Assembly (NCBI GenBank): GCA_048938295.1
Contig: JBHLMI010000002.1
Span: 90,001-122,000 of the forward strand
Source: Promethearchaeota archaeon
Lineage (GTDB): Archaea; Asgardarchaeota; Hermodarchaeia; Hermodarchaeales; Hermodarchaeaceae
Reading direction: 5' to 3'
DNA: 32,000 bases
Numbering within the stretch: position 1 is the stretch's first letter; each line of letters begins with the position of its first letter. Both the position numbers and the translations under genes were made by a program. This document shows positions 5,409 to 7,214 of this stretch, one piece after another. Under the pieces are notes generated by a model. The model made no database searches, was not told the origin of the DNA, and was given only the letters and a program-made list of their open reading frames with translations.

Positions 5409-6257
5409 ATGATCCATCACGTCTTCATAATTGATGCACGAGACACTGTGGTCGTGCAGAAGAAATTCTGGATCATCGAAGTCGACAAAGAAGAAATCCG
5501 ACGATTTGCCTTTCGGGTAAAAACGAATCAGATGCTATTGATCGAAGAAATCGGGTCAATAAAATGCATTGGCCAACCACTCGGACGAGGTGTTGTCATT
5601 CTATGCGCTGAGTTCATCGACGAAGATACAACACTGATGGAAAAAATCGAAAAAGTTACCTTCGAGTTTCGTCGAGTTATCAGCTACGAAGAGGAATTCG
5701 ATACATTCATGCGAAAACTCGACACCTATGTTACGACCAAACTGAAAATCAGCTTACTCGGTTATGGTGGCGTCGGCAAGACCACAATACTCCATCTCCT
5801 TAATGGCGGTAAGATACCCCAAACCTATATTCCGACTATTGGGGTTGATATCCAAAAAGTTGAGGGAACTCGAATTGGCACCTATGAACTTCTGTTATGG
5901 GATTTTGCTGGGCAGGAAAGATTCAGGAAGTTGTGGAAGACGTTGTTCTCCCGCTGTCGAATCGTATTCTTAGTCACCGATTCCACTCTGGAGAATGTTT
6001 TGCAGAGTAAAGATATTTTGGAATTTTTGAAAGAACAGGATTCGCTGAATGATGTGGTAATAATCGCTAACAAGCAGGATTTGCCTGGAGCCCTTCAACC
6101 ATCGATTGTACAACGATTATTGGGAAGAAAGGCGTTCGGACTTATTGCAATCGATCCTAATGATCGCTTGAAAGCCTTAGATATCATCCAAAAAAGCCTC
6201 GAACGTGATGTAGACTGGGCAAAGATGGAAATCAATTCCATCGATTTGCTTCCGTAA
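5409..6257 (+). CDS. Small Ras-superfamily GTPase (Arf/Rab-like) with an N-terminal ~110-aa longin-like domain
   Basis: G1 GYGGVGKT (5760-5783), switch I YIPTIGVDI, G3 WDFAGQERFR, G4 NKQDLPGA. The N-terminus MIHHVFIID...VVQKKF resembles the first beta-hairpin of longin domains; that domain call is inference. Confidence 0.9.
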   Translation: MIHHVFIIDARDTVVVQKKFWIIEVDKEEIRRFAFRVKTNQMLLIEEIGSIKCIGQPLGRGVVILCAEFIDEDTTLMEKIEKVTFEFRRVISYEEEFDTFMRKLDTYVTTKLKISLLGYGGVGKTTILHLLNGGKIPQTYIPTIGVDIQKVEGTRIGTYELLLWDFAGQERFRKLWKTLFSRCRIVFLVTDSTLENVLQSKDILEFLKEQDSLNDVVIIANKQDLPGALQPSIVQRLLGRKAFGLIAIDPNDRLKALDIIQKSLERDVDWAKMEINSIDLLP

Positions 6258-6344
6258 CTACACTGTTATTGTTTAATCGTAATTGTTTGTAAAGCCAGCG
6301 AATTTAATTAGGCAACGCCATCTCAGAATGCATTAGTGAATAAT

Positions 6345-7214
6345 ATGGCAACCCAAACCGAAGCTTCAACGGATCCAAAACCTAACAAGTTTCTTGTGAG
6401 TAAAGTTCGCGCCTCAGAGAATCTTCGAGTGGATATCGAAAAAGCAGTCGGACTCATTGGCGGATTTGATTCTTTAATCCAATCTGATGATTTGGTGACC
6501 ATTAAGCCAAACTTGAATACCGCTGACCCTTATCCAGCCTCAAGTGATGCGAATTTCATTCAAGCACTAGGTGAAGCCTTGTTAGCTGCAGGAGCGGGGA
6601 AGCTCCAGATTATGGATGCATCCACCCAGCGCGTCTGTACCCGAGATGTGGGCGAAGCCATTGGTATTTGCGACGTGGCATTGGATTTGGATGCTGATTT
6701 CATATCCCTTGATGAGCACTCCTGGATCAAACAGTCATTCCCCAAAGGAAAGTACCTAAAAAGCGGGCACATTGGCGAGCCTGCCCTGAATCTTGGCAAA
6801 TTGGTCATTGCCCCATGTTTGAAAACCCACTTCATAGCAAAATTCACAGCGAGTATGAAGGTGTTGATGGGGTTGCTAAAACGCCAAGACCGCCTAAAAA
6901 TGCACCTCCGAAACCTCGAATACAAAATCGCAGACCTTGCCTCCTACTTCCACCCAACACTGGTAGTAATGGATGCTCGGAAAGTCTTCGTGACAAAAGG
7001 TCCTGCTTCCGGACACATTGAAACGCCCAACCTCATTTTGGCAAGCCACGATATGGTGGCTATCGATGTCGTGGGTGTTCGGCTGCTTCAAAGTTATAAC
7101 GCCCAAAATAAACTCGACGTACCCGTTTGGGAGCTAAACCAAATTACCCGAGCCAAGGAAATCGGGTTCGGAGCTACAAGTGATGATGAAATTAAAGTCA
7201 TCGAACAGATTTGA
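6345..7214 (+). CDS. DUF362 domain protein
   Basis: VTIKPN, LKTH...TASMK and LVVMDA...GP...G...PNLILASHDMVAIDVV motifs. Probable start ATG 6345 (track GTG 6336). No fused ferredoxin domain. Confidence 0.85.
   Translation: MATQTEASTDPKPNKFLVSKVRASENLRVDIEKAVGLIGGFDSLIQSDDLVTIKPNLNTADPYPASSDANFIQALGEALLAAGAGKLQIMDASTQRVCTRDVGEAIGICDVALDLDADFISLDEHSWIKQSFPKGKYLKSGHIGEPALNLGKLVIAPCLKTHFIAKFTASMKVLMGLLKRQDRLKMHLRNLEYKIADLASYFHPTLVVMDARKVFVTKGPASGHIETPNLILASHDMVAIDVVGVRLLQSYNAQNKLDVPVWELNQITRAKEIGFGATSDDEIKVIEQI

Follow-up and report, generated by a model that had tools for sequence, protein, structure and literature searches.

A 32,000-nucleotide stretch of the genome of a Promethearchaeota archaeon from the Hermodarchaeaceae (GenBank assembly GCA_048938295.1, contig JBHLMI010000002.1, positions 90,001 to 122,000; hereafter the window, in whose coordinates features are given) carries on its forward strand an open reading frame (ORF) at 5409..6257 that encodes, from an ATG start, a 282-aa protein and a stop codon. 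The product, assigned to an orthogroup termed 'A', is well supported as an Asgard-restricted two-domain small GTPase in which a longin domain is joined nearly linker-free to an Arf-like G domain, probably of the ArfL type. More than 100 full-length homologs, sharing 35 to 94% identity, are encoded in Asgard metagenome-assembled genomes (MAGs), which excludes a chance ORF, and the start codon is backed by homologs, nearly all of which open with M-I-H-H/S at the same position. The longin domain spans aa 1 to 110 (5409..5738, +), the G domain aa 111 to 265 (5739..6203, +), and a disordered C-terminal tail aa 266 to 282 (6204..6254, +). This layout of about 110 N-terminal residues followed by a complete G domain had been described in an earlier note made from the sequence alone and held in the ORF, in Pfam and in the predicted structure, where the first strand of the G domain begins at residue 110. 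As the same note had it, neither a C-terminal Cys prenylation motif nor Gly2 is present: the only Cys residues are at 53, 66, and 184, so the last 98 residues are Cys-free, and the N terminus, M-I-H-H, is a beta-strand of the longin domain. No lipidation site, amphipathic helix, or membrane segment was found in the 282-aa protein, hence it is most likely soluble. Against NCBIfam, the whole protein matched the generic small_GTP domain only.

Judged by its modelled fold, the N-terminal domain is a longin. Modelled alone with AlphaFold2 (AF2) from 54 N-domains, it reached a predicted local distance difference test score (pLDDT) of 95.1 and a predicted template modelling score (pTM) of 0.88, and in the full-length model, built on a 46-sequence alignment with a mean pLDDT of 79, it scored about 84 to 93. 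Strands at residues 2-8, 14-19, 44-48, 51-58, and 61-68 and helices at 27-40, 73-91, and 97-108 give the order beta-beta-alpha-beta-beta-beta-alpha-alpha, with no N-terminal helix, a first strand from residue 2, and two C-terminal helices. This is the element order by which Tran et al. 2024 told longin from roadblock (PMC10933270, Fig. 7 legend). In an exhaustive structural comparison (VIA-align), the longin of VAMP7 aligned over 107 of the 110 residues (Z 12.7, root-mean-square deviation 2.6), followed by SYBL1 (Z 12.4), synbindin (12.0), delta-COP (11.9), and Sec22, AP-3 sigma, and sedlin (11.5). All seven solved longin classes, at Z 11.5 to 12.7, span residues 1 to 110. In contrast, roadblock chains (MglB, MglC, LAMTORs, and Asgard roadblocks) scored Z 8 to 10 and aligned only to about residue 92, with the last helix missing; SRX domains scored Z 8.8 to 9.7. 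Foldseek concurred, its matches to AP sigma, VAMP7, and AP-3 mu having E values of 1.6e-4 to 1e-3. A Roadblock/LC7 identity was therefore rejected, given the first strand at residue 2 with no helix before it and the two helices at the C-terminal end. The earlier note had called this region longin-like and proposed fold prediction and Foldseek on aa 1 to 110; both were run and returned a longin, neither a roadblock nor a fold outside this superfamily. At the level of sequence, no Pfam family matched residues 1 to 100, and a search of the ESM Atlas with the N-domain yielded nothing usable. More distant family members matched Fuz_longin_1 (2.8e-5) and Clat_adaptor_s (9.2e-5), the paralog on C38 rising above the Clat_adaptor_s cut-off (22.8 vs 22.5). 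Sub-threshold matches of the N-domain profile to solved chains (AP-3 mu1, AP-4 sigma1, and MON1) were suggestive and were not counted.

Pfam placed a small-GTPase domain at residues 101 to 242. Arf was the top family (83.4 bits, E 1.7e-23, cut-off 22.3), its match covering only model positions 5 to 144 of 174, followed by Roc (66 bits, 4.1e-18) and Ras (57 bits, 2.3e-15, model positions 1 to 117 of 162); SRPRB scored 27.6 against a cut-off of 25 and Gtr1_RagA 19.2, below its cut-off of 22. The 60 best solved chains by sequence were all Arf/Arl. By fold, the G domain was closest to Arf6 (Z 17.5), Ras-like 12 (17.3), Rab3C and Sar1 (both 17.1), and Rab6 (17.0), with SRbeta (15.9), RagD (15.3), and FeoB and Roco chains (14.1 to 14.7) lower. 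The full-model fold search was dropped as a family classifier, as Arf, Rab, Ras, and Sar all scored Z 17.0 to 17.5. Grouping with bacterial Roc/MglA/FeoB-type GTPases, which the earlier note had named as an outcome that would speak against it, was not observed, the FeoB and Roco chains ranking below the eukaryotic families.

Conservation of the nucleotide-binding motifs was counted in an alignment of 46 homologs. The G1 motif or P-loop, GYGGVGKTT (aa 118-126, 5760..5786, +), has invariant G118, V122, G123, K124, T125, and T126; its first half is Ras-like and its K-T-T end Arf-like. Switch I, Y-I-P-T-I-G-V (aa 140-146, 5826..5846, +), which runs on to residue 148 as Y-I-P-T-I-G-V-D-I, aligns with I-P-T-I-G-F-N of Arf1 and includes invariant Y140, P142, and T143, the last being the conserved switch I Thr. 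The G3 motif and switch II, W-D-F-A-G-Q-E-R-F-R-K-L-W-K-T-L-F (aa 164-180, 5898..5948, +), align with W-D-V-G-G-Q-D-K-I-R-P-L-W-R-H-Y-F of Arf1. Here W164, D165, F166, G168, R171, F172, L175, and W176 are invariant, the catalytic Gln169 is found in 43 of the 46 and A167 in 44, and R173, L175, W176, and F180 preserve the Arf-type switch II signature R-x-L-W-x-x-x-F. The G4 motif N-K-Q-D (aa 221-224, 6069..6080, +) is followed by an Arf-like L-P-G-A-L to residue 229, with N221, K222, Q223, D224, A228, L229, and P231 invariant. G5 is degenerate, L-I-A-I-D (aa 245-249, 6141..6155, +), with A247 in 45/46 and D249 in 40/46, and the alignments to the Arf hidden Markov model (HMM) and to Arf1 both end short of it. 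The lowest model confidence in the G domain fell on switch I, the interswitch, and switch II (pLDDT 54 to 69). All residues for GTP binding and hydrolysis being conserved, the protein is most likely an active GTP/GDP switch, as predicted from sequence. The motifs singled out in the earlier note (YIPTIGVDI, WDFAGQERFR, LW, NKQDLPGA, and LIAID) are all present and conserved among the 46, and its description of a G domain mixing Arf-like with Ras/Rab-like motifs proved apt: by Pfam, the Arf1 alignment, and the homologs, the domain is a true mosaic.

To which GTPase group such a mosaic belongs was judged against the marks that Zhu et al. 2025 (PMC11914678) regard as specific to Arf, namely a Leu-Asp pair as the second and third residues of G1, a Gly as the third residue of the G3 D-x-x-G, interswitch length, and the amphipathic helix. 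All four fail in the longin-fused GTPase. Its G1 reads G-Y-G-G-V-G-K-T-T rather than the G-L-D-x-x-G-K-T-T of Arf, its G3 is D-F-A-G-Q-E-R-F-R rather than D-V-G-G-Q, the A-G-Q-E-R-F-R form being Ras/Rab-like, and its beta2-beta3 interswitch has 3 residues more than that of Arf1. The Arf-like elements in the Arf1 alignment are I-P-T-I-G, R-x-L-W-x-x-x-F, and A-N-K-Q-D-L-P-x-A. A Rab GTPase was rejected on the lack of any Cys after residue 184 and the lower Ras score (57 bits vs 83 for Arf), and a Rag/Gtr GTPase on the sub-threshold Gtr1_RagA match and the presence of only a 17-aa disordered tail after the G domain. ArfR/AArf proteins are true Arf relatives, typically of about 180 aa with an amphipathic helix, whereas ArfL is an Asgard-only 'Arf-like' group that has no direct kinship to the Arfs of eukaryotes and is placed close to Rag and Rup2 by published trees (PMC11914678; 10.1101/2024.02.28.582541). 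Given its architecture, its taxon range, and the failed Arf-specific marks, the protein fits ArfL best and would not be a true Arf relative. We give only a slim chance to the alternative of a true Arf-family member (ArfR/AArf) that carries a longin N terminus. It would explain why Arf is the best Pfam family and Arf/Arl the best solved chains, as well as the Arf-like N-K-Q-D-L-P-x-A and I-P-T-I-G, and longin N termini are stated for some AArfs (Zhu et al., PMC11914678). However, the G1 and G3 residues and interswitch length are not those of Arf, and the solved Asgard ArfRs score no higher than eukaryotic Arfs (69.7 bits for 8oun vs 84 for Arf3p). Moreover, reports of AArfs come mainly from Gerd-, Heimdall-, and Hodarchaeales (PMC11914678), whereas the longin-G family is most frequent among records labelled Thor or Loki.

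The junction between the two domains is short. In the predicted structure, the last longin helix (97-108) passes into beta1 of the G domain (110-118) via a one-residue link; Arf1 residue 17 aligns to residue 108, and the Arf HMM match begins inside this helix. In small GTPases, beta1 leads into the P-loop and its start lies far from the nucleotide pocket. From this general geometry and the one-residue link, the longin should sit on the side of the G domain that in Arf bears the amphipathic helix, opposite the nucleotide pocket. At the other end, the tail (pLDDT <50 for 267-282) closes with D-W-A-K-M-E-I-N-S-I-D-L-L-P, a pattern kept in 16 A-type sequences and different in the B-type and Thor-type groups. 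The A-type tail reads ...V-D-W-x-K-M-E-I-D-T-I-D-F-L-P, the B-type tail ...A-P-K-E-E-x-V-A-P-K-P-E-M-T-F, and the Thor-type tail ...L-P-x-D-D-L-L-R-F-T-D-E-D-E. Such orthogroup-specific tails look like short linear partner motifs.

Profile searches of the organism's own genome (2.52 Mb, 66 contigs) recovered five longin-G proteins, on C8 (this gene), C54, C65, C38, and C1. The five fused G domains scored 160 to 296 bits against the family profile, compared with no more than 56 for every other small GTPase in the genome, and in a G-domain tree the longin-G family and 23 short GTPases fell on opposite sides of a branch with a Shimodaira-Hasegawa-like approximate likelihood ratio test (SH-aLRT) support of 98. 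Each of the five paralogs paired with orthologs from other MAGs in the tree and hence represents one of five old orthogroups. The A-type gene grouped with P0006, P0028, and P0029 (support 99). Its sister group is the B-type (C54, P0053, and others), which evolves more slowly and shares 64.5% identity with it. Matches to the N-domain profile occurred in 117 of 151 sampled Asgard genomes, including 61 of the 72 of high quality; 39 of 52 genera were represented, and all genomes in this genus carried 3 to 9 matches. The family is present in Thor-, Loki-, Hermod-, and Hod-labelled archaea. Between its most distant members, the N-domain retains 16 to 22% identity vs 48 to 54% for the G domain, where 'its' refers to the family; it evolves faster yet is always retained. 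Two longin loops carry an Arg in 33 of the 46 homologs each: D-A-R-D between beta1 and beta2 (aa 9-12, window 5433-5444, R11) and P-L-G-R-G in the beta4-beta5 hairpin (aa 57-61, window 5577-5591, R60). Both are kept in the A- and B-type groups and are not conserved in distant members. Many relatives (P0128, P0133-P0135, P0151, P0158, P0161, and P0196) have C-terminal extensions of 150 to 450 aa after the longin-G core, in which a Pfam search matched no family. These extended forms may correspond to the 'longin-G-roadblock' type of Tran et al.

The genes around 5409-6257 encode an aminotransferase, an M32 carboxypeptidase, a DUF362 protein, an Lrp/AsnC regulator, and a class IV aminotransferase. 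The DUF362 gene lies on the same strand 79 nucleotides downstream (6336-7214, +), and all A-type orthologs examined (L001-L003 and L007) keep the pairing, whereas the other orthogroups do not have it. The two genes may be co-transcribed but are unlikely to be functionally linked. The block of M32 carboxypeptidase, GTPase, DUF362, AsnC/Lrp, and class IV aminotransferase was kept only among A-type orthologs of at least 71% identity, while the B-type gene and the near-basal P0034 adjoin an MBL-fold hydrolase, a thioredoxin, and a DEAD helicase. Since the block is missing in B-type and P0034, it was taken as lineage synteny, and the idea of a tie to amino-acid sensing was rejected.

Longin-G paralogs were also found side by side. 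A Thor-labelled contig carries a tandem of 306 aa and then 296 aa (L009:5001-5921 and 6058-6948), adjacent pairs occur in a sister genus, and L017:2662-8420 holds an array of three Arf-like GTPase genes, one of which encodes a 781-aa product that combines an SCP2 lipid-binding domain with two G domains. Two further gene pairs in the own genome were at first candidates for 'split forms' of the fusion and proved to be Fuz/Mon1-like longin genes with RasL, not ArfL, GTPases. In these, a longin-like protein of 326 aa (G000:C61:59103-60634, +; L010:504-2035) or 272 aa (G000:C32:23603-24966, -; L011:504-1867) is encoded by a gene that overlaps by 4 nucleotides the start of a gene for a 182- to 184-aa RasL GTPase (Ras 166 to 174 bits). 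The 326-aa protein matched Fuz_longin_1, the first longin of FUZ/MON1/HPS1 (8.5e-5). For the 272-aa protein, the N-domain profile of the longin-G family gave the sole match (3e-5), with none in Pfam. The two RasL GTPases are sisters in the tree. By sequence, these look like operonic pairs of a Mon1/Fuzzy-type longin with a Rab-like GTPase.

We infer that the mechanism as a whole is probably best read as a soluble switch with a longin platform. Under this proposal, the longin would be a protein-assembly platform fixed at the N-terminal 'back' side of the G domain, through which the protein would self-associate, pair with a paralog, or attach to a partner complex; the nucleotide state of the G domain would be read at the switch face. 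The logic would be that of Rag/Gtr, a G domain with a roadblock-superfamily platform, in reversed domain order, and the disordered, orthogroup-specific tail would add a short partner-binding motif. A platform role is favored by the one-residue linker, by the paralogs in tandem, in an array, and in adjacent pairs, and by an N-domain that diverges fast yet is always kept. In MK-D1, Rag-like pairs are likewise adjacent, and Tran et al., who class longin-G proteins as Rag-like/Arf-like, modelled dimers of them (PMC10933270). Several points count against this proposal. The ArfL assignment comes from exclusion and architecture, and the 'back side' placement from chain connectivity and general GTPase geometry. 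Furthermore, the neighbors are metabolic and give no hint of function, and the A (C8) and B (C54) paralogs of this genome are not adjacent. A prediction of the homodimer from two copies scored 0.00 against a mark of 0.42 and counts neither way. Taken jointly, an ArfL-type switch with a longin assembly platform seems to us evenly poised between being right and being wrong.

The strongest competitor, though unlikely, is the idea of the earlier note that the longin is a regulatory module of its own G domain. It would resemble a guanine nucleotide exchange factor (GEF), a GTPase-activating protein (GAP), or an effector and act either in cis or, in a head-to-tail dimer, in trans, on the model of the longins in TRAPP, Mon1-Ccz1, folliculin, and SRX-SRbeta. 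Small GTPases partner most often with longin and roadblock modules (PMC10933270, PMC12290439), and the fusion of two domains often marks a direct interaction. The overlap of Fuz/Mon1-like longin genes with RasL genes indicates that longin-GTPase partnerships exist in this genome, and the R11 and R60 loops could in principle supply an arginine finger. Nevertheless, these arginines are not conserved in more distant family members, and the one-residue link would put the longin at the end of beta1 opposite the P-loop, so a GEF or GAP role in cis is unlikely. A Gly-Pro motif at the start of beta2 marks the GAP-type longins FLCN, SMCR8, C9orf72, and NPRL2 (PMC12290439). No Gly-Pro was found at residues 8 to 14 in any of the 46 homologs, the beta1-beta2 loop here reading D-A-R-D-T and then V-V-V-Q-K-K.

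Slightly less probable again is an Arf-style 'front-back' switch, in which the last longin helix would replace the amphipathic helix of Arf, and GTP would shift the interswitch and free or re-orient the longin, exposing a binding surface in the GTP state only. Helix 97-108 occupies the place of the Arf N-terminal helix in sequence, as Arf1 residue 17 corresponds to residue 108 and the Arf HMM match starts from residue 101 at model position 5. The invariant R-x-L-W-x-x-x-F signature is of Arf type, and switch I, the interswitch, and switch II are the least confident parts of the model. However, the interswitch exceeds that of Arf1 by three residues, G3 is D-x-A-G and not D-x-G-G, and published trees put ArfL away from Arf (PMC11914678; 10.1101/2024.02.28.582541). 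A combined version, in which the longin would be a nucleotide-gated output moved by GTP via the interswitch, and longin-to-longin contacts would join the conserved A/B or tandem paralogs into a permuted Rag-like heterodimeric sensor, appears improbable. If true, a nucleotide-gated longin would add to membrane insertion, seen in Arf, and to pairing through a C-terminal roadblock, seen in Rag, a third way in which a roadblock-superfamily module can be coupled to a small G domain. A fused SRX-SRbeta-like module in co-translational protein targeting can practically be set aside, for although Pfam SRPRB lies just above its cut-off and SRX and SRbeta do match the two domains by fold (Z 8.8 to 9.7 and 15.9), generic longins (Z 12.7) and Arf (83 bits; Z 17.5) match better, the SRbeta-type N-terminal membrane anchor is lacking, no SRP or FtsY genes occur in the neighborhoods examined, and five paralogs per genome are unlike a housekeeping receptor.

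The longin-Arf-like architecture is already known, and this gene is a further example. PMC4917890, citing Klinger 2016, reports five Lokiarchaeum longin domains fused to Arf-like GTPases; Liu et al. 2020/21 (10.1101/2020.10.19.343400) described Rag-family GTPases with a fused longin in Asgard archaea; Tran et al. 2024 (PMC10933270) described MK-D1 GTPases 'predicted to be Arf from sequence', structurally Rag-like/Arf-like and fused to longin and/or roadblock; and Zhu et al. 2025 (PMC11914678) noted longin N termini among AArfs. As a novelty, the fusion that the earlier note put forward as a model for how longin-GTPase pairs arose was thus not upheld, Asgard longin fusions to Arf-like/Rag-like GTPases having been published repeatedly since 2016. 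As PMC4917890 describes them, the Lokiarchaeal ArfL fusions have the same order of longin and then Arf-like G domain, are Asgard-restricted, and are without lipidation signals. The present gene differs in belonging to a Hermod-type orthogroup, A, with its own conserved C-terminal tail, and is a candidate member of the published ArfL clade. The MK-D1 'L-G' architectures (PMC10933270) likewise join a longin to a GTPase that is Arf by sequence, with an AF2-predicted fold and a suggested dimer. Whereas that study covered one Loki genome, the longin-G family sampled here also includes the extended forms, this protein being without an extension.

Among eukaryotic systems, Rag/Gtr proteins (RagA-RagC and Gtr1-Gtr2) similarly have a G domain covalently joined to a roadblock-superfamily domain, form paralog pairs, and lack a lipid anchor. 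Here, however, the order is reversed, the partner domain is a longin and not a roadblock, Gtr1_RagA falls below its cut-off, and switch II is Arf-like. Arf1/Arl and the ArfR/AArf proteins (8OUM, 8OUN; 10.1101/2024.02.28.582541, PMC11914678) give the best sequence match and share signatures and the catalytic Gln, but in the longin-fused GTPase there is no amphipathic helix or Gly2, G1 and G3 differ, the interswitch has three additional residues, and G5 and the last helix are unaligned. SRX-SRbeta, TRAPP-Rab1, Mon1-Ccz1-Rab7, and folliculin-Rag also pair a longin fold with a small GTPase. In those systems the partners are separate polypeptides and the longin lies on the switch face, whereas here they form one chain with the link at the opposite end of beta1 and no GP motif.

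Public records already annotate the protein as Arf-like, a label that needs correction insofar as the protein fails a bona fide Arf's marks in G1, G3, and the interswitch and fits ArfL best. A second correction, drawn from the modelled junction, is that regulation in cis appears sterically unlikely. As a short protein with no extra domains and an almost rigid junction, from a widespread family, it is convenient for biochemistry and crystallography. Longin-GTPase partnerships organize membrane traffic and nutrient sensing in eukaryotes, and the Asgard fusions are a rare clue to their origin.

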